From assembly GCA_947571135.1 (NCBI GenBank), contig CANOWY010000001.1:3604-67603 (forward strand): a stretch of DNA of 64,000 nt, given 5' to 3'. The notes under the pieces were generated by a model. It saw only the letters and a program-made list of their open reading frames with translations. It made no database searches and had not been told where the DNA came from. The stretch's first letter is position 1. Each line of letters starts with the position of its first letter. This document shows, in pieces, positions 3,228-35,125 of the stretch. The DNA is from an uncultured Mycoplasmatota bacterium (lineage in GTDB: Bacteria > Bacillota_I > Bacilli_A > RF39 > UBA660). The position numbers were made by a program, and so were the translations under genes.

Positions 3228-3949
3228 TGTTTACAAAAAGAACTCTAACCGATTTAGATAAAAAATTATTACAAGAAAAATATCAAACAAACTACGAAGA
3301 AGCAATAAAAAAAGTAAATGCCGGCTACCCTATTCAATACTTAATAGGGAATGTCGCTTTTTTAAATGTTGAAATTAATGTCAATGAGCATGTCTTAATT
3401 CCTAGATTTGAAACAGAATATTTAGTAGAAAAAGTTTTAAAAAAAATAGAGAAATACAAACAAGAATCATTAAAGTTTTTGGATATATGTACGGGGAGCG
3501 GTTGTATTGCCATTGCTATTGCCAAAAATACAAACTTTTTTTGCCAAGGAATCGATATTTCAAAAGAAGCCTTACAAGTTGCAAAAGAAAACAGTATAAA
3601 AAATAACGTGACAGTGCAATACAAACAATTTGATATTTTAAAGGAAACAATAACAGAAAATTATGACGTTATAATATCTAACCCGCCTTATATCGGAAAA
3701 GAAGAAAGTGTAGATGAATCTGTTTACTATGAACCTCCAATCGCTTTATATGCAGAAGAAAATGGCATTATTTTTTATAGAAGAATACTAGAAAAAATCC
3801 AAAATAAACCAAGACTAATTGCCTTTGAAATTGGAGAAACCCAAAAAGATGAAATTATAAAATTAGCCACCCAAAAATTTCCAAATGCGAAAATATCTTG
3901 CGAAAAAGATTTATGTGGAAAATTTCGTTATATTTTCATTGAACAATAA
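3227..3949 (+). CDS. prmC: Release factor glutamine methyltransferase
   Basis: LIPRFETE, DICTGSG, SNPPY; coupled to prfA; short N-terminus. Confidence 0.95.
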   Translation: MFTKRTLTDLDKKLLQEKYQTNYEEAIKKVNAGYPIQYLIGNVAFLNVEINVNEHVLIPRFETEYLVEKVLKKIEKYKQESLKFLDICTGSGCIAIAIAKNTNFFCQGIDISKEALQVAKENSIKNNVTVQYKQFDILKETITENYDVIISNPPYIGKEESVDESVYYEPPIALYAEENGIIFYRRILEKIQNKPRLIAFEIGETQKDEIIKLATQKFPNAKISCEKDLCGKFRYIFIEQ

Positions 3950-7843: not shown

Positions 7844-8545
7844 ATGAAATATAAAATATTAATTATTATTACTTTAGGAACCATTTTTACATCAATTATT
7901 TACTTTCATACTGATAAAGACAATCTAAACGTTTTAGTTCTTGGAGATGGCATTTCAACTGGAATGACTTCTTATCATATAGAAGGATACGACTATAATG
8001 AATACTTAATAGAATATTTAAATGAAAATAACAAATTGGAAAACTACTATAAAAACTTTAATGAAGTAGATGAGACAGCAAGCAATCTCGTAAACAAATT
8101 AAATAACAACATAGAAAATATAGAAAAAAAAATAAAATTAAAACAAGCCGTGAAAGAAGCGGATATTATCACCATAACTCTTGGTATGGACGAACTAAAT
8201 AACTATGCCAAAAAAAATAATTTAGGTTCTACTAAGATAAATGGATATTTAAGTAAATATAAAGAAGTACTAACAATCTTAAGAAAATTAAACAACAAAA
8301 AGATTTATTTAATTAGTCTATATGAAACCAATTTAGTAAATAAAACAAAAATAAAAAAAATAAATGAAGAATTACAAAAATTATGTAATCAAAATAACAT
8401 TACATATATAAATATAGAAGATATAACAGCAAATAAAGAGTTCTTTACGACTAAAAATGAGTACTATTTAAATTATAAAGGCCAAAAATATATTTTTAAT
8501 AAAATAAAAGATACATTAGAACCTCCAACTATGAAAATTATTTGA
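7844..8545 (+). CDS. SGNH/GDSL hydrolase family protein with N-terminal anchor
   Basis: VLGDGIS block I (Ser position altered), ITLGMDEL block III, degenerate block V. Confidence 0.7.
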   Translation: MKYKILIIITLGTIFTSIIYFHTDKDNLNVLVLGDGISTGMTSYHIEGYDYNEYLIEYLNENNKLENYYKNFNEVDETASNLVNKLNNNIENIEKKIKLKQAVKEADIITITLGMDELNNYAKKNNLGSTKINGYLSKYKEVLTILRKLNNKKIYLISLYETNLVNKTKIKKINEELQKLCNQNNITYINIEDITANKEFFTTKNEYYLNYKGQKYIFNKIKDTLEPPTMKII

Positions 8546-10923: not shown

Positions 10924-10943
10924 TCTAACAGGAAGGTGATTAG

Positions 10944-11573
10944 ATGACTAAAAGAAAATTGAAAGGAAGCGTAAAACGAGTATTATGTGTTGCAAGTATA
11001 AGTGTAATTTTTATCTCCTTATTTTTTGTAACAAAGAACTTAAAACCAACCAATGAAAGTGATGAAGAATATGTAATGAACTCTATTTTAGATCCCATTA
11101 CTCCTGTTACAAACATAACTGAGACACCAAAGATTACTAGACCTTATACCAGTGACAAAGTACGAATCAGTAATTACTTCTATGAAAAAGATGCAAGTAC
11201 TGAAGAGCAAGAAAAATCATTAATCTATTATGAAAACACATACTTACAAAATAGCGGTGTTGTATATAGTAGTGATGAAGAATTTGACGTCGTTGCCGTT
11301 TATGATGGAACTGTTATAGACATTAAACAAGATGATATTTTAAACAATATTGTTTATGTATCTCATAATAGTAGTCTTACCACTATATATTATGGACTTA
11401 AAGACATAAATGTAAAAATTAATGATTCTATAAATCAAAATACAGTTTTAGGCAAAAGTGACAAAAACAAATTTTCAAACAATGCAAATTCAATGTTATT
11501 CGAAGTCAATTATGATGGCAAAGTATTAAACCCTGAAAGTTTTTATGTCATGGATATAAATGAATTAAATTAA
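10944..11573 (+). CDS. spoIIQ: SpoIIQ-like protein with degenerate M23 domain
   Basis: N-terminal TM, M23 fold lacking Zn ligands, lies between spoIID and spoIIID, sigma-F-like promoter. Confidence 0.8.
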   Translation: MTKRKLKGSVKRVLCVASISVIFISLFFVTKNLKPTNESDEEYVMNSILDPITPVTNITETPKITRPYTSDKVRISNYFYEKDASTEEQEKSLIYYENTYLQNSGVVYSSDEEFDVVAVYDGTVIDIKQDDILNNIVYVSHNSSLTTIYYGLKDINVKINDSINQNTVLGKSDKNKFSNNANSMLFEVNYDGKVLNPESFYVMDINELN

Positions 11574-11625
11574 GTACTAGACAACCCCAGAGATAAATAT
11601 AGTTTATCAAGGGGTTGTTTAAATA

Positions 11626-11883
11626 ATGAATAAAGATTTACTTACAAGAGTAAGAAAAGAAGCACTATATATAGTTCAAAGTAAAAAAACACTAAGAGAA
11701 GTGGCAAAAGTATTCGGAATAAGCAAAAGTACCATACATAAGGATATGAAAGAAAGATTAAAAAAAATTTCTCCTGAATTATTTAGACAAGTAAGGAATG
11801 TTTTAGAAGAACATTTAGAAATTCGTCATATTAAAGGGGGAGAAACAACAAAACAAAAATATTTAAAAAAACAAGTGAGTTGA
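11626..11883 (+). CDS. spoIIID: Sporulation transcription regulator SpoIIID
   Basis: TLREVAKVFGISKSTIHKDM.ERL, RHIKGGETTKQKY. Confidence 0.95.
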   Translation: MNKDLLTRVRKEALYIVQSKKTLREVAKVFGISKSTIHKDMKERLKKISPELFRQVRNVLEEHLEIRHIKGGETTKQKYLKKQVS

Positions 11884-11887
11884 TAAA

Positions 11888-12487
11888 ATGAAGAAAATGC
11901 ATTATGTTATATACCTATGTGACGATGAACTCTTTTTTTTGGATATAAAAAAAGATAACATAAAAAAGGCCAAATTTAAAAGCATCAAAAAAGATGAACT
12001 AATAAATAGTTCATTATTTATAGATGAATTTAGTAAATTTCTAAAACAAAACCATATTAAAGTATCTTTATTTGGAGATAATATTTGTTTTATAAAAAAT
12101 AAGAATATAAATTTGGTTACTCTAGAAAAATATGAAGAATTATTAAAAGAATATTTCTATAAAATAGAGTATAAAGATTTAGAAGAAATCCTAAAAATTG
12201 ATACGAATACTGCTTATTTAAATATTACAAATCATTATCTAGATTATTATTTTATGAAAAAAAATGAAAAAAGAACATTAAGAATTGACTTAAGTCTTTT
12301 TAATGAACAATTAAATAAAGCATTGCAACATATTTTTTCAACAATATTTAAACCAAAACGATTAATGGTATATGGAAATCTTGAAAACATTTCTAAGATT
12401 GCAGAAAACATAACGAATAATTATAATATAGCCACTACTTTCCCCGAAGTCCATTATCATTATATATTTGAAGAATACAAAAAATAG
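11888..12487 (+). CDS. Hypothetical protein, possibly a highly degenerate Mbl/MreB actin-fold protein
   Basis: 199-aa ORF at the position mbl occupies after spoIIID; motif-spacing similarity only. Confidence 0.45.
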   Translation: MKKMHYVIYLCDDELFFLDIKKDNIKKAKFKSIKKDELINSSLFIDEFSKFLKQNHIKVSLFGDNICFIKNKNINLVTLEKYEELLKEYFYKIEYKDLEEILKIDTNTAYLNITNHYLDYYFMKKNEKRTLRIDLSLFNEQLNKALQHIFSTIFKPKRLMVYGNLENISKIAENITNNYNIATTFPEVHYHYIFEEYKK

Positions 12488-12556
12488 CAATTTTGTATTT
12501 TTTTAATGCAATTTATGTTATAATTGCAAATAGTAAACGTAAGGAAGTGTAGAAGT

Positions 12557-13282
12557 GTGATTAAAATTGTAGTGGTAGAAGATGACAAAAAAGCACAGTT
12601 AGAAATAAAAAATATTTTAAGACAATTAGATATATTTAAAGAGGAAGAAATTAAAATAGAATATTTTACAAAATGTACAAACGCATTAAAAGAAATCATA
12701 GAAGACACAGCGGATCGTAAAATCTATATACTAGATATTGAACTAGAAACGAAAATTAGTGGAATAGACATTGCAAAATTTGTTCGTGAAATCGACTGGG
12801 AAAGTGAAATTATTTTTATTACAAATCATGATAAAATGTTTGAGACAACTTATCGTAACGTGTATAACGTTATGGACTTTATTGAAAAATTTCATGACAT
12901 GGATCACAAATTAAAAAAAGATATGAAACTTATTTTTAAGAAGAATTTTGACAATAAAATGTTTAAATTTAGTAGTAGAAACTTAAACCTTCAAATCTTT
13001 TACCGTTCTATTACACATTTATATAGAGATAAAGAATCTAGAAAGATTATTGTAAATACTGACAAAACAAACTATGCAGTTTATCTAAATGTAATCGACG
13101 CAGTAAATTATTTAGACAGTCGATTTAAAATGGTACATAGAGCATGTATTGTTAACTTAGACAGAGTACAAGTTTTTAATTGGACAAAAGGTTATTTTTT
13201 ATTAGATACAGGAGAAAAAGTACATATGTTATCTAAAAAGTATAAAAAGGAAGTGGAAGAATATTATGAAAGAAATAATTGA
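12557..13282 (+). CDS. agrA: LytTR-family response regulator, AgrA-like
   Basis: VVEDD, ILDIEL (phospho-Asp), IIFIT, C-terminal LytTR (VHRACIVNL); probable GTG start at 12557. Confidence 0.88.
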   Translation: MIKIVVVEDDKKAQLEIKNILRQLDIFKEEEIKIEYFTKCTNALKEIIEDTADRKIYILDIELETKISGIDIAKFVREIDWESEIIFITNHDKMFETTYRNVYNVMDFIEKFHDMDHKLKKDMKLIFKKNFDNKMFKFSSRNLNLQIFYRSITHLYRDKESRKIIVNTDKTNYAVYLNVIDAVNYLDSRFKMVHRACIVNLDRVQVFNWTKGYFLLDTGEKVHMLSKKYKKEVEEYYERNN

Positions 13283-25713: not shown

Positions 25714-25732
25714 AATAGTCTAATTTTTTTTT
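25701..25732 (+). terminator. Terminator after ftsH
   Basis: TTAGAC-loop-GTCTAA followed by a T-tract. Confidence 0.6.
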
Positions 25733-25802
25733 ATAAATGTTAATTTTAATTGTATTTATAAATACAAAAGTATGATATAACAGATATAGGAGTTGGAAAA
25801 AA

Positions 25803-28800
25803 ATGGCAAAAAGTTACATAATAGGATTAGACCTTGGTATAAATAATGTTGGATATGCAATCATAGAGGAAGAAACACGTCATATTATTAAAAAAGGAGT
25901 TAGATTATACAACGCTTCTAATGGAGCAAAAGATAGAAGAATTTTTAGAAATACACGTCGAAGGATGAAAAGAAAAGAGAATAGAGTTAATGAATGCTTA
26001 AAACTTTTAGAAAGTATAGGCTTCCCTAAAAAAAACACAACAGATTCGCTTTTGTTAAACAAAAGGATAAAAGGTTTAAAAGAAAAATTAGATAAACAAG
26101 AAATTGTAAATATAATATGCTATTACATGGTACATCGTGGATACATTCCGTTTGGTGATGAAGAACGTATGTTAGTTGATTTGCAAGGAATGAAACCATG
26201 TGAATATTATAAAAGATTGTGGAACGAATCTGGAAAATACAGAGCATTAGAAAATGTAATAAATCACGAAGATTTAAAAAGAGAATTTAGTGAAATTTTA
26301 AAAGTACAATGTAATTTTTATCCTGAATTGAATAAAATAATTGGATCATCAAAAGAAGAAAAAGGCTTACTTTGGATTTTCAGTCGAAAAAGAAAGTTTT
26401 GGGAAGGACCTGGGAGTCAAAATTCTTGGACTCCATATGGAAGATTTAATAGCAGGGAAGATGTTTTAAATTATATTGAATTAAAAAACAGTGGACAAGA
26501 AAAATATCTTTTTGAAGATCTAATTGGACATTGTAAAATATTTAGAGAAGAAAAATGTGTTCCTAAAGCAAATTTTTTTGCTGAAAAATTTAATTTATTA
26601 AATGACTTTCTCAATATACGAATAATTCATCCTGAATCAATTAAGAAAGAAAATTATATTTTTCAACAAGAAAAGAGTAATAATTACCAATTGACTTCTA
26701 AAGCATTAGAAGAAATTATAAATTATTGTTTAAATTTTGAAGGGAAGACACTTTCTTATACAAAAGTTTTAAAAGAAGTACTTGGCTTAAGAAAAGATGA
26801 TATTTTGGGATATCGAATGGACAAAAGTGGTAATCCTGAGTTTTCACTATTTAAAACATATCGCTATGTCATAAAAATTTTTAAAGAAAAAAAATTATCA
26901 ACTACATGGCTTATTCAAGACAATTATAAAAATTATAATCGCTTAATGGAAATTTTAGCAGTTGCACCTGGCATTGTAGAGATTGAAAAAATGCTTACGA
27001 GTATTCATATTTGCACAGAAGAAGAAAAAGAAGTAATTAAAGAAATAAGTCTCAAATTAAAAAAAGATAGCGCATTAGAATATCATTCGTTAAGTGAGAG
27101 GGCACTTAATAAAGCCATTATAGATATGATAAGTACTGAGATGAATTTTATGCAAGTTTCTAAAAAATTTGATTATGAGAAAGAATCTAGAGAGTATTTT
27201 TTGAAAAATTATGGTAGTGGCGAAGGTAAATTACTTATGACAACTAAATATGTAGATGAGATAATTGCGTCTCCACAAGTAAAAAAAACTTTAAGACAAG
27301 CAATAAAAATAATAAATGCTATTATAAATGAAATGAAAACATATCCACGTGTAATTGCAATAGAATCAACTACAAAAATGAATGGAAAAGATAAAAAGCA
27401 AGAAATAGAACAAGAACAAAAAAGAAATGAATTTCGTCGTAAAGAAGCAATAAAAATATTAGAAGCGCTTTATAATGATGATAAAATTACTGAAAATATG
27501 GTAGAAAGAATAAAATTATTTTTAGAAACAAATAGAGAATGTCCTTACTGTGGTAAGAATGTTTCTATAAATGAAGTAATAAACAATACTCTAGAAGTTG
27601 AGCATATTTTACCAATTAGTCAAAGTGCCGATGATTCTCAAGATAATAAAACAATCTCATGTAGAAATTGTAATGAAAAAAAAGGAAATAAAACGCCATA
27701 TAATTTTTTAAGTAAAGACGAATTTGAAAAGTTCACAACACGTATTTTAAAATACAATATTTCAGATAAAAAAAGAAATAACTTTTTGACAAGAGAAGAT
27801 ATTAATAAATATAAAATAAGATTTTTTAATCGTAATTTGAGAGATACTGCATATGCAACAAAAGAATTGGTAAATCAAGTACATTTATTTAATAACTACT
27901 TAAAAGCAAATATTGAAAATATAGAAATAAAAACTTTATCAACACCAGGTCAATTAACTCATAACATTCGAGATAAATGGAAACTGAAAAAAGATAGAGA
28001 TGACGGAAAATACCATCACGCAGTTGATGCTTCTATAGTTGCAGGCATTGCTACTACAAAATTAGGAGAACTTATTATCGAATCACAAAATGATACACAA
28101 TTCTGGATTTTAAAAAAAGATGTAGCAACAAAAATACCTGAATATTTAGAAAACTTCAATTTAAAAGAAATGAAAAATGAAATTATAAAAATACAAAATG
28201 ATCAAGATAATCAAATATCCATGCAGGTAAATAAAGATCCTAATCGTTCCATTTCAAATGCCAATATATATTCATTTATTAAAAAAGGGGAAGAAGATTA
28301 TTACATTATAGAACAAATTGATGATATTTATTCGCCAGATTTATTACGTAAAGAAAAAGAGAAACTAGATATTTTATTTGATGAAATGAATTCAAAATAT
28401 ACTTTGTTGTGCCAAGAGAAAGATCCAAAATTATTTCGTTATTTGAAAGAAATTTATAAAACATATCAAATAGATAAAACCAATCCTTTTAGAAATTACT
28501 GCGAAGAAAAACTAACAGAAGAGGAAACATTTGATTATTTAAAACATGGAATAAAAACTCCATCTAAAAATAATAAAGGTGTCCTAATAAAAAAACTAAG
28601 ATACATGAGGAGTACAACTGATCCTTATCTTCTAGAAAAGAAAAATATAAATAAAAAAGAAAATACTTATATTGGATTAGATAGGGTATCTATTTATTGT
28701 ACTCGTCTTTACTGGGATAAAGATTTAAAAAAGATTATTTTTATGCCAATTTATTGTCCATGTGTAGATTTTAAAACAAAAAAAATTAATAAAAATCACC

Positions 28801-29072
28801 CCTTATATCAACATTATTATAAAAAATTTGTCCATGAAAAGAATGTAGAATTTATTGTTGATTTATTTAATGGCAATTATTTAGAAATTGAAAAACCAAA
28901 TGGTGAGATAATTTATAGATTTGTTGAAAGTTATCATAAAGTTGGCAAAAAAATTTCGTGTCAAGGTGGCAATTATTTATCATCTAAAGATAAATTTATT
29001 CTATATGATGTAGATATTCTCGGAAATAAGAAAAAGCGTTTGACTTGGCCAAAAGATTCAGATATAATGTAG
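25803..29072 (+). CDS. cas9: Type II CRISPR RNA-guided endonuclease Cas9, 1089 aa
   Basis: RuvC-I IGLDLGINNVG, Arg-rich bridge helix, RuvC-II IAIES, HNH CPYCG..EVEHILP..N..KGNKTP, RuvC-III HHAVDA. Confidence 0.96.
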   Translation: MAKSYIIGLDLGINNVGYAIIEEETRHIIKKGVRLYNASNGAKDRRIFRNTRRRMKRKENRVNECLKLLESIGFPKKNTTDSLLLNKRIKGLKEKLDKQEIVNIICYYMVHRGYIPFGDEERMLVDLQGMKPCEYYKRLWNESGKYRALENVINHEDLKREFSEILKVQCNFYPELNKIIGSSKEEKGLLWIFSRKRKFWEGPGSQNSWTPYGRFNSREDVLNYIELKNSGQEKYLFEDLIGHCKIFREEKCVPKANFFAEKFNLLNDFLNIRIIHPESIKKENYIFQQEKSNNYQLTSKALEEIINYCLNFEGKTLSYTKVLKEVLGLRKDDILGYRMDKSGNPEFSLFKTYRYVIKIFKEKKLSTTWLIQDNYKNYNRLMEILAVAPGIVEIEKMLTSIHICTEEEKEVIKEISLKLKKDSALEYHSLSERALNKAIIDMISTEMNFMQVSKKFDYEKESREYFLKNYGSGEGKLLMTTKYVDEIIASPQVKKTLRQAIKIINAIINEMKTYPRVIAIESTTKMNGKDKKQEIEQEQKRNEFRRKEAIKILEALYNDDKITENMVERIKLFLETNRECPYCGKNVSINEVINNTLEVEHILPISQSADDSQDNKTISCRNCNEKKGNKTPYNFLSKDEFEKFTTRILKYNISDKKRNNFLTREDINKYKIRFFNRNLRDTAYATKELVNQVHLFNNYLKANIENIEIKTLSTPGQLTHNIRDKWKLKKDRDDGKYHHAVDASIVAGIATTKLGELIIESQNDTQFWILKKDVATKIPEYLENFNLKEMKNEIIKIQNDQDNQISMQVNKDPNRSISNANIYSFIKKGEEDYYIIEQIDDIYSPDLLRKEKEKLDILFDEMNSKYTLLCQEKDPKLFRYLKEIYKTYQIDKTNPFRNYCEEKLTEEETFDYLKHGIKTPSKNNKGVLIKKLRYMRSTTDPYLLEKKNINKKENTYIGLDRVSIYCTRLYWDKDLKKIIFMPIYCPCVDFKTKKINKNHPLYQHYYKKFVHEKNVEFIVDLFNGNYLEIEKPNGEIIYRFVESYHKVGKKISCQGGNYLSSKDKFILYDVDILGNKKKRLTWPKDSDIM
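29040..29068 (+). promoter_or_regulatory. sigma-A promoter for tracrRNA inside the cas9 3' end
   Basis: TTGACT(29040-29045)-17 bp-TATAAT(29063-29068). Confidence 0.8.
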
Positions 29073-29074
29073 AT

Positions 29075-29178
29075 ATGGATGTTGAAAAAAGTTTTCAATT
29101 TCCTAAATTACACAGGGTTTCCTATTATAACTTATTTTAGGTAACTGAGGAATGCTTAAAACCGGCATTCCTTTTTTT
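29075..29178 (+). ncRNA. tracrRNA
   Basis: Anti-repeat 29091-29116 matches 25/26 nt of the repeat reverse complement; terminator AGGAATGC-loop-GCATTCCT-T7 at 29148-29178; 5' end estimated from the promoter. Confidence 0.88.
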
Positions 29179-29187
29179 GATAAAAAA

Positions 29188-30081
29188 ATGGCTTTTCGTA
29201 CTATATATATTGAAAAAGCAGTTCGTCTAAGATTAGATTTAAATAATATTGTTGTGAATTATGAAAATGATGATTATCATATCAATATAGATGAAATAAA
29301 TTCCTTAATTATAGATGATCCACGTTGTAACATATCTCTACGATTACTATCTGCTCTATGCGAAAAAGGAATCAATGTGATATTTACAGATTCCTCTCAT
29401 ATGCCAATTGGATCTTTACAAACATTATATAATCATACTAGGGCTCCAAAAAAAATTAAATTGCAAATGTCTTGGGATAAAAATTCTCAAATTTATCTTT
29501 GGACCGAAATAGTAAAACAAAAAATAGAAAATCAAATAGATACACTAAAGAAAAAAGGAAAATTAGAAAAAGTAGATTTAATAGAAAAAATGAAAACAGA
29601 AGTTACACTTGGTGATTTAAAAAATAAAGAAGGTCTTGCAAGTAGAGTTTATTTTAAAGAACTATTTGGAGTAACTTTCAAGCGTTTTGATGAGAATATA
29701 ATAAATTACGCTATGAACTATATATATCAGATATTACGATCTAAAATTGCTCAAGAGATTGTAGCATGTGGTTATATTCCTGCTATAGGAATCTGCCATA
29801 AAAGTGAATTTAATTTATATAACTTAGCAGATGATTTTATTGAACCTTTTCGACCTATATGTGATTATTACGTTTGTGATATATTAGAAAATACAATAGA
29901 AAATTATTTGACTTCTGAAATTAAACAAAAAATAGTAAACATTCTAAACCATAATGTATGTTTTAAAAAAGCCTCTTATAAAATTCATATTGTGATTCAA
30001 TTTTATGTTCAATCATTGTTTAAATATCTTGAAACAGGAGATATTGCACATATAGAATTTCCAACACTATGGAATATGTAA
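29188..30081 (+). CDS. cas1: CRISPR-associated endonuclease Cas1, type II
   Basis: MAFRTIYI start, NKEGLASRVYF..LFG, GICHKSEFN.YNLADDFIEPFRP; alternative start 29152 falls inside the tracr terminator. Confidence 0.94.
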   Translation: MAFRTIYIEKAVRLRLDLNNIVVNYENDDYHINIDEINSLIIDDPRCNISLRLLSALCEKGINVIFTDSSHMPIGSLQTLYNHTRAPKKIKLQMSWDKNSQIYLWTEIVKQKIENQIDTLKKKGKLEKVDLIEKMKTEVTLGDLKNKEGLASRVYFKELFGVTFKRFDENIINYAMNYIYQILRSKIAQEIVACGYIPAIGICHKSEFNLYNLADDFIEPFRPICDYYVCDILENTIENYLTSEIKQKIVNILNHNVCFKKASYKIHIVIQFYVQSLFKYLETGDIAHIEFPTLWNM

Positions 30082-30440
30082 ATTTGTATCGTCAAATGCG
30101 TTTAATTTTAATTTATGATTTACCTGTTCAAGATGAAATGGAAAGAAAAGTTTACAGTCGATTCCATCGAGATATTACTAGATTAGGTTTTTATATGTTG
30201 CAATATTCAGTTTATTCAAAAGTAATACAAAATGATACATCATTAAAACAGTACTTATTTAGAGTTGAAAGAATAGTTCCAAAAAAAGGGAATATCATTG
30301 TGTTAAAAGTAACAGAAAAACAATACCAAGAGATGATATACTTACGTGGTGAAAAAAATAAATTTGATATTTTAGTTGGTGGAAAGGAATTTGTTGTTTT
30401 TGGAGGTGATCGAAATGATGAATTTAAAAATCGTGAATAA
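30069..30440 (+). CDS. cas2: CRISPR-associated endoribonuclease Cas2
   Basis: MRLILIYDLP, GFYMLQYSVYSK, VTEKQY. Confidence 0.94.
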   Translation: MEYVNLYRQMRLILIYDLPVQDEMERKVYSRFHRDITRLGFYMLQYSVYSKVIQNDTSLKQYLFRVERIVPKKGNIIVLKVTEKQYQEMIYLRGEKNKFDILVGGKEFVVFGGDRNDEFKNRE

Positions 30441-31305
30441 AGAAGAGGAATTTTTAGAGCCAATTTTAAAAGATAATTCTCTTTTTATTTTAGATAAAAA
30501 TACATTTTTTAAATTTTATTATCAATTTTATCAATGTCTTGAAAACAAAGATAAAAATATAAAGATTAATATCGGAGAAAAAATGCTTGAACCAAAAAAT
30601 ACTATATTATTTTCATTTTGTGATTATAAAGAGATTTTAGAAAATTTAAAATATAAAAAAGGAACTCTATTTTATGAATACTTGTTATCATGTTTAGGAG
30701 AACTTAACATTTTAGAAGAGGATGTAGTATTTTATGATATAGCAAATATTGCAAAGAATATAACTGAAAAAGCAAATGTAAAAGTATTTTATAATTTAGA
30801 AGAAGATATTGAAAAATTGTTATTTAGTACTGTAGATTTTACATTAGATTTTGAAGTAAAAAATATTGTAGAAGTTTTAAAAAATTTATTAAAATCTTAT
30901 ATTGAAAAGAATCAAAATAAAATTTTTATCATTTTTTACGATTCAAGTTTATTGTCTTTAAAATTTGAATATTTTGACTTTTGCTATACTTTTGATATTT
31001 CAGAACAAAAAGACCTTGATAGATATAATTTGATTTGTATGGAAGAAATAAAAAAGTTTGATATTAATTCTTTTGTAGAAAAATTGGAAAGTATTTGGCC
31101 TGTGGAATTCTATAATGAGAAAGTAATCAATTATGTTCAAAAATATTTTATTTTTAAAAAGTGTAATATTTCATTAATTGCACATGAAGAACCAGAATAT
31201 TTAACATATAAATTAATGAGTAAGATATATAATGAGGAGATCAGTATAAAATTGGATAATTGTACTATTCGCGACAATATTAAATCTTTTTTAGAACAGA
31301 TTTGA
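30415..31305 (+). CDS. csn2: Long-type Csn2, type II-A
   Basis: Lies between cas2 and the array; DYKEILENLKYKKGTLFYEYL resembles the S. thermophilus CRISPR1-type long Csn2 motif; ATG after GGAGGTGA. Confidence 0.78.
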   Translation: MMNLKIVNKEEEFLEPILKDNSLFILDKNTFFKFYYQFYQCLENKDKNIKINIGEKMLEPKNTILFSFCDYKEILENLKYKKGTLFYEYLLSCLGELNILEEDVVFYDIANIAKNITEKANVKVFYNLEEDIEKLLFSTVDFTLDFEVKNIVEVLKNLLKSYIEKNQNKIFIIFYDSSLLSLKFEYFDFCYTFDISEQKDLDRYNLICMEEIKKFDINSFVEKLESIWPVEFYNEKVINYVQKYFIFKKCNISLIAHEEPEYLTYKLMSKIYNEEISIKLDNCTIRDNIKSFLEQI

Positions 31306-31330
31306 AACCTTTATGATATAATATTTATAG
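31306..31330 (+). promoter_or_regulatory. CRISPR leader, 25 bp, with extended -10 promoter
   Basis: TG-A-TATAAT at 31314-31322; leader end ATTTATAG abuts repeat 1. Confidence 0.6.
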
Positions 31331-32290
31331 GTTTTAGGATCCTGTGTAATTTAGGAAGTTGAAAACCAATTCCCAGTTGGGTAGATGTTCTATCAAGTTT
31401 TAGGATCCTGTGTAATTTAGGAAGTTGAAAACGTGTTGATTTGATTTGCAACGTCAGTTAGTGTTTTAGGATCCTGTGTAATTTAGGAAGTTGAAAACAG
31501 ATAGAATTCGTGCTCACTCAAACGGTGTGTTTTAGGATCCTGTGTAATTTAGGAAGTTGAAAACGTTTTGTCTTCCTGTTATATTAGGAACTTTGTTTTA
31601 GGATCCTGTGTAATTTAGGAAGTTGAAAACTACTATAAAAGCACTTAAAACGGATACTCCGTTTTAGGATCCTGTGTAATTTAGGAAGTTGAAAACTACT
31701 ATAAAAGCACTTAAAACGGATACTCCGTTTTAGGATCCTGTGTAATTTAGGAAGTTGAAAACTTTTACTATAAGAAACTCCACAATCTAGCAGTTTTAGG
31801 ATCCTGTGTAATTTAGGAAGTTGAAAACATACGAAGCCGATGTAAAGGTTCAATACTTGTTTTAGGATCCTGTGTAATTTAGGAAGTTGAAAACAACTTT
31901 TAAGATTAAAACACCTTATACAAAGTTTTAGGATCCTGTGTAATTTAGGAAGTTGAAAACTTGACATACTAGTTCCATCTATCATTAAAGGTTTTAGGAT
32001 CCTGTGTAATTTAGGAAGTTGAAAACTATCCACTATGATTGTAATACATCTTATCGGTTTTAGGATCCTGTGTAATTTAGGAAGTTGAAAACCTAAGCCC
32101 TTAAATTCAAGATATTTCTCAAGTTTTAGGATCCTGTGTAATTTAGGAAGTTGAAAACTACTTTTATACAAAATCTTGCTAACTCTACGTTTTAGGATCC
32201 TGTGTAATTTAGGAAGTTGAAAACTTTTCCACATCCTGTTAGCATAAATACTGCGTTTTAGGATCCTGTGTAATTTAGGAAGTTGAAAAC
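31331..32290 (+). CRISPR. CRISPR array: 15 identical 36-bp repeats GTTTTAGGATCCTGTGTAATTTAGGAAGTTGAAAAC and 14 spacers of 30 bp
   Basis: 66-bp period read directly; spacers 5 and 6 are identical; orientation from tracrRNA complementarity and the leader promoter. Confidence 0.99.
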
Positions 32291-34273
32291 AATTTTTGAA
32301 CCTTTTTGAGGTGGTAATTTATCTGTCATAAGTTTTTGAATTTCGGCTAACTTAACGCGTTTGTCATATCCATCTTGCATTGTAGATATTTCTTTCATAT
32401 TATCCATAATAAATTGTACTTCTTCTGGTTTTAAATCGAAATCACTTTTATGCTTATCTATCCAATCTTTAGATTTATTCTTAATCATTTGATTATATGC
32501 TTCAGTAAGTTCACTTTGAGCGTACTTAACCATGCCTTCAGGAGTCATACGTTCCATAATATTAAAGGCCTGTACAGTTTGACCAGCCTTAGAACCAATA
32601 TCACGCATTTTCTTAGCAACTTCCACCATAGAATCATAATCGCCATTATCGGCATATTGTTTAAGTAAAATCCACCCTTCTGCTACATCTGTAGCATCTG
32701 CATTTACACTCTCTTTGTTAAACCATCTTGTACTTTCAACTTGACCATCCTTGTTTAATCTTTCAAATGCTTTATCTAAACTTTCTTTGTTTGTTACTTT
32801 ATCATAATATTTAACTTCATTTTCGGATAAAATTTTATTCTTTTGTTCTAAATTTAACATGTCTGTTTTTTCTAAGATATTATTCCAATATTTACTCTCA
32901 CCATCATTTACTTGATTTCTATTAACTTTTGGCAATATAGGAGTAGTATTAGCATCATTTGAATTTAAATTAGATATTTCTAATGGGTTTAATGTCTTAT
33001 TACTTTCTGTAAATTCTTTACTATATGGAGCATTTATTTTATTTTGTGCTTTAAGAGAACTTATATCTTGCATATTTGTTCTAGTTCCAGTTGCTTTATA
33101 ATTCTTTTCTAAATGTTCTTGCCAAGATGTATTATTTTGAGTTTCTTGCATAGAATGTTTAGTAGATGGCAATTTGACATTATCCTTTGATTGTGTTATA
33201 TTGTCATTAAGAAAAGGAATACTTATCGATTCAGTCGCAGTATTAACTGGTGAACTGATTTGGGTATTCCTTTTTAAGTTTGTTATGTCATATAACATTT
33301 TTTTATTGCCATTTTTAGCAACATTTATTAAACCAGTATAGGTTTTATCTCCTACTTTAAAAGTAGTTTCGTAATAATCCCAACCATCTTTAGCAAAATT
33401 ATGTATTCCATCATCCAGAGCACTATATTTATATTTTGAAACTTCTAATAAATTATCTAATTCTGTAGAGGCTTTCATTTTTGAAATCTTATCATTTTTT
33501 TGAAGGGTATTTTTTGGAAAGGTATATTCATTTGCCGTTTTTCTATTTACAACAACTACATCATTATTTGAATTTATACCAGTATTCTTAAAATTATCCA
33601 AAATATATTGTTTTGCGATTTTAGTTTGTTCGTACAAATTCTTACCTTCAAATATATCTTGGTTTGTGTCCACATTCACATATTTATTACCATTTACATC
33701 TTGTTGGATACTAAACATATTATTATTTAAATTATTACTTTGAGTTCTATATGCAGTCTCCCATTTATTCTGTAAATCTTTAATGAATAGACTTTCTTTT
33801 GAATTACCAGTTATTTTGTTGGCTAAAGATACAATAGCATTATAAATACGTTTGAATATACTTGGTTGTTCCATAGATAAATTATTAATAAATTCTTGAT
33901 TACCGAATAATTGTCCTGATATATCTGCTAATACTTCACTAGATACATCATTTGTGCCATAAGTTTGTTTTAGACTTTCTAAGGCATTATTAAACTCACT
34001 ATTTTTACTAGCATAGTCAATTACTAATTTTTTCATAGAATCAGTTTCTATTGCATGTGTAACTTCATGCATAATAAGAAATTCTCCTGCTCGTTGAGAG
34101 TTAGGGTTTATTTTTATTTCTATTTCCCCATTTTGATTGTTAATTTGAGCATTTATCATATTCCCATTTTTAGAAGTTATGTTTGTATCAAATGTAATAT
34201 TATAATTTTTATCTGATACTATTTTTTCTAAGGTATTTATAAAATCGTGTGTTTGTTGTGAATTGTTAAAGTA
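32291..34273 (-). pseudogene. Doubly truncated fragment of a phage/conjugative-element large polyvalent-type protein gene
   Basis: Frame open from 34273 with no RBS or start context; it runs into repeat 15 (..KGSKI|VFNFLNYTGS*). Contains a HEVTH zincin motif and an LPD-like segment (DGWDYYETTF...LINVAK...LYDIT). Confidence 0.7.
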
Positions 34274-34321
34274 TTAACTAGTAAATTTTTTATTGGATAA
34301 TAAATAATATAAAATAAAAAT

Positions 34322-34464
34322 AAAAAGTACCAATTTTGTTAAAATTCCTATGAATTTGGCAAATTGGTCTTTTATTATGTCAAAATCTCCAGTAAATCCC
34401 CTCTGTTTTTCTCCCGATTTAACAAATTCGTAATTTGCATTCCTTTTTTACTTGTTTTATAGTG
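34322..34464 (+). repeat. Dispersed ~142-bp hairpin/promoter element, copy 2
   Basis: Hairpin ACCAATTT..AAATTC-ctat-GAATTT..AAATTGGT plus CTTTT; ends in TTGCAT-17 bp-TATAGT (34435-34463). Confidence 0.85.
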
Positions 34465-34576
34465 GAACACACGGACACCAAGCACTTAAACTTAAGTCGT
34501 TTCGTTTAAAAGAAGTTTAAAATAGTTTGAGAGAAAAGCAAAGGATTTAGCAACGAAAGGAAAGAGTAAAATAAAC

Positions 34577-35062
34577 ATGAAAATAATAAAAAAAGAAACA
34601 TTTCTAAAAATATTTACAATAGAGGAAAATCGATTGTTATTAGACACCATGATTTTAAATTTTTTTGGCTTAGAAGCAACGAATAAAATAGAAGAAACAG
34701 AAATAGAAAAAGAAGATATCGTTCTAACTTTTATACTCATGATAAATACAGAAATAATCTTAAAAATTAATGTAAAAGATACTAAAAATTTATTCTATGC
34801 TTCTAAAATATTTTATCTTAATTTCAGTTATCAGGAGGTAGCCAAATCTCATGAACTTTTAATCCCATGTTATTGGGAAATCTATATTCCATATTGTTAT
34901 CAACACCAAAAGAACAACCGTAAACTTTTTTTAGTTGCAGCCTTACTTTATTGCGAAAATAAAAAAGAAGTAGAAAAAATATTAAAAAAACTAAACATAG
35001 AGAGTCAAAATGATATTGAAGAAATTTTAGAAATTGTAGAAAAAAATATCGAGTTTTTATAA
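34577..35062 (+). CDS. Shortened, probably inactive Rpn/PD-(D/E)XK transposase-like protein
   Basis: FLKIFTIEENRLLL..ILNFFGL and NLFYASKIFY echo Rpn-family motifs; catalytic D/E positions appear substituted. Confidence 0.5.
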   Translation: MKIIKKETFLKIFTIEENRLLLDTMILNFFGLEATNKIEETEIEKEDIVLTFILMINTEIILKINVKDTKNLFYASKIFYLNFSYQEVAKSHELLIPCYWEIYIPYCYQHQKNNRKLFLVAALLYCENKKEVEKILKKLNIESQNDIEEILEIVEKNIEFL

Positions 35063-35125
35063 AGACAAATATCTATTATTGTGTTAAAATATTTCTAGTA
35101 ACTAAAAATTGAGAAGGATGGTAGT

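Follow-up and report, generated by a model that had tools for sequence, protein, structure and literature searches.

A phage gene fragment at the end of a type II array

A type II CRISPR array whose last repeat is joined directly to a piece of a phage gene lies in a 64,000-nucleotide (nt) stretch of DNA from an uncultured Mycoplasmatota bacterium (GTDB lineage Bacteria; Bacillota_I; Bacilli_A; RF39; UBA660). The whole of this stretch, positions 3,604 to 67,603 of the forward strand of contig CANOWY010000001.1 (assembly GCA_947571135.1), is called the window here, and coordinates refer to it unless another contig is named. The array occupies 31331-32290 on the plus strand, with the leader and the promoter at its left. 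An exact search of the window found 15 identical copies of the 36-nt repeat GTTTTAGGATCCTGTGTAATTTAGGAAGTTGAAAAC, from 31331 to the last at 32255, and all of the 14 spacers between them are exactly 30 nt in length. The last repeat (32255-32290, plus strand) matches the consensus at 36 of 36 positions. Neither a 16th repeat nor a degenerate terminal repeat was found beyond 32290 when the window was scanned with up to nine mismatches allowed; at this threshold, the only further repeat-like sequence in the 64 kb is an anti-repeat of the trans-activating CRISPR RNA (tracrRNA) at 29091. A stretch at 34345-34366 was considered as a degenerate terminal repeat and rejected, since 57 of 402 background windows score equally high.

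The last repeat is followed by a captured fragment of a phage gene for a polyvalent-type internal-virion protein (32291-34295, minus strand), which is truncated at both ends and has its right boundary somewhere in 34274-34295. On the minus strand, an uninterrupted frame of 671 codons extends from 34273 to a stop codon at 32258-32260 that lies within the repeat. It ends with ...KLPPQKGSKI before the repeat edge and with VFNFLNYTGS and the stop codon inside the repeat. The called open reading frame (ORF), counted from the first ATG, encodes 633 amino acid residues (32258-34159, minus strand), and its final 10 codons and stop codon are repeat-encoded. Thus, annotation pipelines call a 633-residue "protein" here whose C-terminus is the translation of a CRISPR repeat. 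An initial annotation of the window, made from the sequence alone, had described this layout (a perfect 15th repeat, then minus-strand coding sequence running into the repeat, and no terminal repeat), and the exact and mismatch-tolerant searches bear it out.

The first 30 nt of the fragment (32291-32320, plus strand) are called the pseudo-spacer below. The minus strand of the pseudo-spacer encodes KLPPQKGSKI and is collinear with the phage homologues to the base before the repeat. The adjoining 3′ flank ATCTGTCA (32321-32328, plus strand) is a candidate protospacer-adjacent motif (PAM). In DNA and protein alignments with intact phage genes (L089, L091, P0008, P0013, and P0023), the homology ends exactly at the repeat edge. 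At this junction the window reads ...GGTTCAAAAATT and then GTTTTC, whereas the phage contig L089 reads ...GGATCAGGGATT and then AAGTCT. P0008, P0013, and P0023 run on past the junction as ...KG[SA][KG]I[KR][SA]WMRISMLFNPKTQ for about 680 further residues. Phage homology therefore starts from the first base after a complete repeat, as would be seen at a recombination junction. The insert does not look like a CRISPR spacer, with no second flanking repeat and a length of about 2 kb versus 30 nt.

At the other end, the homology is clear from YFNNSQ (34273) on. Immediately upstream of it is an in-frame stop codon, TAA (34274-34276, minus strand), which replaces a Gln of the homologues and marks decay of the 5′ end, and the codons just upstream of it faintly resemble the phage sequence ...RKSASQ. 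The stop codon at a Gln position and the faint resemblance together place the right boundary at 34274-34295. Thus, the open frame from 34273 in the initial annotation stands, but the edge of the fragment is not a sharp one at this position.

The junction in other strains and samples

The junction is a genuine, exact, fixed, and vertically inherited scar in the chromosome. Both the repeat-fragment junction and the far junction are present in assemblies of at least eight samples (SPAdes and Logan). Six contigs, each from a different sample, encode the exact 633-residue product with its repeat-coded tail, and two further contigs encode a 99% variant. The arrays differ among the SPAdes contigs, with 8 to 20 repeats on a contig: L002 has 20 repeats with additional spacers at the leader end, L005 has 14 repeats, and L006 has other spacers and has lost seven spacers at the trailer end. 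Each array nonetheless closes with the same repeat, followed by AATTTTTGAACC... Since strains with different spacer sets share the junction, it must be older than the divergence of these strains. The fragment is present in about 20 public runs, which come from at least 13 studies and mostly carry the label mouse gut. Substitutions specific to a lineage and an indel of 57 nt, both described below, segregate with the host flanks.

It had been proposed in the initial annotation that the contig might be an assembly chimera formed through spacer-protospacer identity, and that spanning of the junctions and comparison of coverage would decide this. A chimera had some prior plausibility for a single contig, and nothing more. 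Contigs cross 32290/32291 and the far junction at flank depth in four of four runs, and the two junctions recur in at least eight contigs from different samples and from two kinds of assemblers. A chimera is thus practically inconceivable, and this proposal is refuted.

A 346-nt contig in run X11 matches 32260-32294 of the window and has the same repeat, which is followed by a different sequence, AATTAGCTGCTGCTATTTTATATAAAG..., with no repeat at 30 nt. A related strain or species lacking the fragment may have this sequence as its trailer.

The source gene in phages

Phages and conjugative elements are known to encode polyvalent proteins (Iyer et al. 2017, PMC5512222). The fragment has 111 homologues of 370-1173 residues, many of which have polyvalent-protein Pfam domains. 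The domains in the homologues include ART-PolyVal, MuF_C, PBECR3, LPD3, LPD23, and SprT-like, and the polyvalent Pfam families in the relatives are PF18760, PF18819, PF18812, PF18798, and PF18838. The full-length relatives are ORFs of 2018 and 2183 codons in IMG/VR contigs of 20-23 kb (L089 and L091), where the gene has the portal and major-head genes on one side and the tail genes on the other, as is typical of a gene in the head-morphogenesis region. About 25-30% of these small contigs is taken up by the polyvalent-type gene. The fragment corresponds to approximately residues 424-1263 of the 2018 residues of the L089 protein, an internal third of it, and the C-terminal 284 residues of the fragment (residues 378-661) have 79% amino acid identity to the product of the L089 ORF (8732-14788). 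An HExxH motif, HEVTH (34055-34069, minus strand), can be read from the translation and is found as HE[IV]THAIE in the homologues.

The fragment itself has no family match in Pfam (even at E ≤ 10), PHROGs, or NCBIfam. Thus, the phage origin claimed in the initial annotation is supported by the full-length homologues among the head and tail genes of viral contigs, while the "LPD-type modules" ascribed there to the fragment were not recovered in Pfam. As for the exact donor, a 32-nt junction-proximal sequence is absent from IMG/VR, and no DNA match was found in a phage collection of 50,697 records. Judging from the homologues, the donor was probably a giant gene of about 2000 codons in a small podovirus-like phage infecting a Bacilli lineage of the mouse gut.

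Similar fusions at other type II loci

The window is not alone in this arrangement. Of the seven chromosomal remnants of this gene family that were examined, five adjoin a type II array at its cas-distal end: that of the window and those of four other loci (L107, L120/L121, L104, and L122/L123), with housekeeping genes in the flanks. The five cases involve at least three unrelated repeat families and different breakpoints in the phage gene.

The L107 locus (remnant at 10939-12933) has a cas operon with 76% nucleotide identity to that of the window but lies elsewhere in the genome. About 55 nt past its last repeat there begins a polyvalent remnant that is frameshifted and in the opposite orientation; it contains a 314-nt module 90% identical to the window fragment. 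In L120/L121 (8148-13504 of L120), a terminal repeat conserved for 24 nt is directly followed by 5 kb of a fragmented Phage_min_cap2/MuF_C polyvalent gene. L104 (10079-11530) has an unrelated repeat and a Cas9 of 1240 residues, and its perfect last repeat is fused to an antisense polyvalent fragment cut in the middle of the gene; homology to P0078 and to a phage protein of 2478 residues reaches within 0-30 nt of the repeat. L122/L123 (10001-11764 of L122) is a II-C-like locus with 27 repeats, where, at the cas-distal end, a fragment of 587 residues, found on 14 contigs, continues into a partial repeat of 18 nt.

Remnants on the long contigs L119, L124, and L126 were picked for inspection blind to their context. 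The remnant of L119 stands alone, and L126 is an intact prophage. The truncated polyvalent remnant of L124 (10001-12232; P0063) is part of a defence island: its neighbours are a type I restriction-modification system and a GmrSD-type enzyme, and no CRISPR array is found within 10 kb of it. Three of the five array-abutting cases were found through homology to the polyvalent gene, and this route of discovery contributes to the bias toward it; the large share of the small phage contigs that the gene takes up may be a further part of the reason. To my knowledge, the recurrence of such fusions at several natural loci has not been described.

Decay and divergence of the fragment

A 57-nt stretch between AAAAAAT direct repeats (34228-34284) is absent from five other contigs (L001, L003, L007, L008, and L106), so that the fragment lacks its first 15 codons there. 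The sister lineage L007/L008 shows three substitutions in the last repeat, confined to its 3′ third, and two in the adjacent 30 nt. The three substitutions may be the expected start of terminal-repeat decay, and may hint at how degenerate terminal repeats arise after a fusion.

When the fragment of the window is compared with that of L007, 11 codons differ synonymously and 7 non-synonymously, with a ratio of non-synonymous to synonymous rates (dN/dS) of about 0.15. The changes fall in three tight patches, at 33790-33800, 32884-32900, and 32280-32309, and all of the five changes in the first patch are synonymous. The divergence is 0.33% in the flanks and about 0.26% in the fragment outside the patches. 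The patchy clustering points to gene conversion from related phage homologues, which suggests that the chromosomal fragment has been converted by the DNA of related infecting phages rather than selected in the host.

Whatever its origin, the fragment might be kept because it is useful, as a decoy or dominant-negative anti-phage protein or as a read-through antisense RNA. The 633 codons are intact in all strains, and the low dN/dS, the placement among defence genes, and the lack of a predicted plus-strand terminator after the array would fit such a use. However, the dN/dS derives from patches that look like gene conversion, and the lineage is so young, with about 0.26% divergence elsewhere, that the intactness of the ORF carries no information. 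Frameshifts or fragmentation affect the remnants in L107, L104, and L120, the HExxH region is deleted in L107, and no convincing ribosome-binding site or start context is seen. The orientation relative to the array varies across the loci, which leaves the antisense RNA idea unsupported. A useful fragment is thus distinctly doubtful. Since no repeat lies downstream, the fragment cannot yield a CRISPR RNA (crRNA) under the known type II maturation pathway. It is treated here as a decaying scar that is now only the trailer of the array.

The cas genes, the spacers, and the genomic island

The cas9 gene (25803-29072, plus strand) encodes a SaCas9-like protein of 1089 residues with the Pfam domains HNH_4 and Cas9_RuvC; its alignment with SaCas9-type structures extends over the full length, and it has both the RuvC Asp and the HNH His. 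The tracrRNA anti-repeat (29091-29124, plus strand), between cas9 and cas1, is the sequence in the window that best matches the repeat's reverse complement, with 31 of 34 positions aligned, while an Rfam search gave no tracrRNA match. Then follow cas1 (29152-30081, plus strand; Pfam Cas_Cas1, 1.5e-29) and cas2 (30069-30440, plus strand; Pfam CRISPR_Cas2, 3.5e-13). The locus thus has the cas9 gene with both nuclease domains, the cas1 and cas2 genes, and the tracrRNA with an anti-repeat that are expected of type II-A. A fourth gene of the cas operon (30415-31305, plus strand; 296 residues) occupies the csn2 position. It is kept beside cas2 in related loci, where its counterparts are 46-61% identical to it, but has no match in Pfam or NCBIfam, to Csn2 models or others. 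The "Csn2" of the initial annotation is thus a name given by position, with no family match, and the gene may represent an undescribed Csn2-like family.

Related loci, which have a similar fourth gene and nearly the same repeat, are found at other chromosomal sites, including L107, L109, and L111. The leader ...TATGATATAATATTTATAG is kept in L107 and L109. In L109, L111, L112, L116, and L117, the terminal repeat is conserved only for the first 21-24 nt and is followed by host genes. In view of these degenerate array ends, the perfect last repeat of the window looks like an internal repeat made terminal by the loss of the original end.

A search of the whole array against the 50,697 phage records gave one imperfect match, spacer 4 with 27 of 29 nt to a tail-knob gene of a Clostridium innocuum phage. 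Seven IMG/VR spacer scans (spacers 14, 4, 1, and 10 and three spacers from L002 and L006) found nothing, and neither did a comparison of 45 spacers with all of the fetched phage loci. Spacer 10 (32027-32056, plus strand) is a perfect 30/30 match to the host rplM gene for ribosomal protein L13. The target contig is at host depth in six of eight runs, its context translates to Pfam Ribosomal_L13, and the 3′ flank of the target is TTTAATTTGT. Since this self-match is tolerated in all strains with spacer 10, either the PAM is missing or Cas9 is restrained. The usable flanks, about GTTTGTTAGA for spacer 12, GAGCCTGTTT for the spacer 4-like match, and that of the spacer 10 self-target, share no motif, and flanks recovered on co-occurring contigs gave no common one either. 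Spacers 5 and 6 (31631-31660 and 31697-31726) are identical, TACTATAAAAGCACTTAAAACGGATACTCC, by tandem duplication of one repeat-spacer unit; the duplication is present in the window and L002, while L004 and L005 have a single copy.

Beyond the fragment lies an AT-rich spacer region with an ORFan of 161 residues upstream of parA (34296-35062, plus strand). The ORFan has no match in Pfam, PHROGs, or NCBIfam and no homologue in the relatives L009-L016. Thus, the return to host-like sequence near 34274, as assumed in the initial annotation, is only partly true, the next gene being an ORFan absent from the relatives. The closest genome representatives are uncultured Bacilli metagenome-assembled genomes with 78-80% identical ParA. 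One relative, L011, has ParA directly after FtsH and lacks both the cas genes and the fragment, while other relatives have unrelated genes in the interval. This ftsH-parA adjacency indicates that 25714-35125 is an island consisting of the cas genes, the array, the fragment, and the ORFan.

Origin of the fusion

A junction at the exact repeat boundary with collinear phage DNA is the product expected of homologous recombination between a spacer and its protospacer. Recombination between spacers and phage targets has been reported (Varble et al. 2019, Nat Microbiol 4:956, as related in the review PMC8616872). It is moderately probable that a spacer of this array recombined with its protospacer and that the distal part of the array was then lost. 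Among the explanations offered in the initial annotation, this one fits best, given the exact junction and a perfect last repeat of the internal type, although the ancestral 30-nt spacer was not seen. The pseudo-spacer would be the former spacer and the crossover site, with the same moderate probability as the whole model.

The proposed course of events is as follows. A spacer of the type II array would have matched a phage gene of the polyvalent type with about 2000 codons, and homologous recombination between the 30-bp spacer and the protospacer would have joined the phage DNA at the exact repeat/spacer boundary. This may have occurred either by a single crossover that gave a cointegrate and a subsequent deletion, or by one homologous and one illegitimate crossover. 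In a cointegrate, the distal copy of the 30-mer together with its repeat would give a crRNA against the proximal, PAM-flanked copy. Autoimmunity would then be the likely driver, as cells deleting the distal copy would survive. Such selection would lead to the loss of all that lies beyond, namely the second spacer copy, the later repeats, the original degenerate terminal repeat, and the trailer, which matches the observed structure. What would be left over is repeat 15, then the former spacer, and then phage gene sequence of 2 kb, collinear and directed toward the array. I infer that the 30 nt were once a bona fide spacer, and likewise the order of the events and the role of autoimmunity.

Several points weigh against this recombination model. 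As an ordinary spacer, the 30-mer would read as the pseudo-spacer plus GTTTTAGGATCC (a 42-mer); such a spacer between two repeats was not found in 8 contigs or 16 runs, where contigs can show presence and not absence. Likewise, no contig in the 16 runs diverges at 32320. No PAM was derived for the resident Cas9, so the flank ATCTGTCA cannot be scored. A length of 30 bp is short for homologous recombination, the published demonstration was reportedly made in staphylococci and so in another host, and a perfect protospacer flanked by a PAM should be cut by Cas9 rather than recombined, unless the phage is an escaper. In L122 the phage homology abuts the 18-nt partial repeat, so that the junction lies inside the repeat. 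In L120 the junction lies after or within the terminal repeat, and the Pfam match starts from nt 8172, in the repeat slot, with a fuzzy edge. In both of these cases later erosion is needed. Finally, the model requires two events or one rare mixed event.

Erosion alone might also explain the structure, if the region downstream of the array, such as a defence island, once contained a phage remnant and successive deletions trimmed the trailer down to the sequence needed for the crRNA, so that the exact edge is due to chance. In type II systems, only about 22-24 nt of the terminal repeat are needed for crRNA. The junctions elsewhere do lie at the functional limit of the terminal repeat (18 nt with a TGATATAAT promoter-like box in L122, and 24 nt in L120), fragment-free arrays keep 21-24 nt of the terminal repeat, and the 57-nt deletion indicates that deletion is ongoing in the window locus. 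The unassigned sequence of about 55 nt between the repeat and the fragment in L107 and the array-free restriction-modification/GmrSD island around the L124 remnant would also fit. However, erosion leaves unexplained why five of the seven remnants were close to arrays in the first place. The window and L104 keep all 36 nt of a perfect repeat, and two junctions with zero offset are unlikely for random endpoints (for L104, as far as the homology can be traced, within 0-30 nt), while the original degenerate terminal repeat is gone from the window. I consider erosion alone unlikely. The model of a giant spacer in the initial annotation, where aberrant Cas1-Cas2 integration joined a long phage end at the repeat boundary and the distal repeat was never made or was lost, is quite improbable. 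The junction lies exactly at the repeat border, which is the site of Cas1-Cas2 chemistry, as it does in L104, and the feature recurs in several type II loci. Nevertheless, the second repeat on the far side is absent, and all 14 true spacers obey a 30-nt ruler that the insert breaks. In type II-A systems, new spacers of 30 bp are acquired at the leader end, whereas the insert is at the trailer end and older than all of the spacers. I know of no report of a kilobase spacer.

A prophage may integrate site-specifically into a CRISPR repeat and then decay. Such integration is documented for a type II-A array, since PhiAP1.1 of S. pyogenes integrates into the array repeats (bioRxiv 10.1101/2020.10.09.333658), and 10 nt of the L089 phage sequence, 41 nt past the junction, match the repeat. 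In the window, however, the junction is at the repeat edge and not in a shared core or inside the repeat, the breakpoint is in the middle of a conserved structural ORF, and there is neither an integrase nearby nor a repeat-like attP or second att-like repeat. The 10-nt match (13 nt with spacer 14), considered as microhomology or attP, was put down to chance: it occurs in one of four homologues, has a background of 1.5% per 120 nt, and owes the three extra bases to a strain-specific spacer. An origin of this kind is therefore very improbable, and recombination between a spacer and its protospacer remains the preferred explanation. A 20-nt inverted repeat (31844-31863 and 32286-32305, 90% complementary), in which the 3′ end of spacer 7 and the start of a repeat pair with the end of the last repeat and the start of the pseudo-spacer (13 of 15 in the spacer part), was treated as probably due to chance, as it has no consistent frame or homology.

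Implications and comparison with known systems

The fusion is already partly explained by a known mechanism, and is unusual as a fixed, recurrent, and natural product. The window and the four other type II loci look like the natural footprint of the spacer-target recombination reported from the laboratory. DNA of a non-integrating phage appears to enter the chromosome via the array, to truncate the array, and to become its new trailer. If the pattern is general, it would offer a testable account of how array trailers and degenerate terminal repeats originate, a route of gene flow from lytic phages to their hosts, one way for arrays to shed old spacers, and a marker of past phage-mediated movement of cas loci. 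A wider proposal would be that the capture of kilobases of virulent-phage DNA at the cas-distal boundary is a general process, spacer-guided or catalysed by Cas1-Cas2, which repeatedly installs pieces of polyvalent genes and renews the terminal repeat and trailer, and that the pieces might be kept as a host-helpful decoy or dominant-negative protein, an antisense RNA, or a homology trap for incoming phage. I regard this proposal as unlikely.

In an ordinary type II array, a degenerate terminal repeat is followed by a trailer. The fragment fills the position of the trailer, but the last repeat of the window is perfect and the trailer is a recognizable phage coding sequence. Compared with polyvalent proteins and MuF-fused toxins, the homologues of the fragment are likewise multi-module proteins of 1000-2400 residues encoded in the head-tail module, with ART-PolyVal, MuF_C, PBECR3, LPD, SprT-like, and ParB-like domains. 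In contrast, the window keeps only an internal piece that has no detectable Pfam domain, a remnant and not a working protein. PhiAP1.1 resembles the present case in that phage DNA lies in or at a type II-A array and affects the downstream spacers. It differs in having an integrase and an attP that mimics the repeat, and in being an intact prophage between two repeat halves, whereas the window has only 2 kb with a break in the middle of an ORF.

Self-targeting spacers and CRISPR-driven genome deletions were reportedly described by Vercoe et al. in 2013, a paper in the reference list of the review PMC8616872. In the window locus, the deletion is not directly observed and the rplM match is tolerated. 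As in those systems, autoimmunity against the PAM-flanked copy would select for deletion of the distal copy, and the array does carry a self-match to rplM. The process of Varble et al. is said to have been demonstrated in 2019 in the laboratory, in staphylococci, where it yielded transducing particles. The window differs from it in that a fixed chromosomal remnant is found in an uncultured gut bacterium and the distal array has been lost. As far as the process is related in the review, it predicts a repeat, then a spacer identical to the protospacer, and then collinear phage DNA, as is seen at 32290/32291. It also ties phage DNA to cas loci and horizontal transfer, which fits the island status of the window locus.

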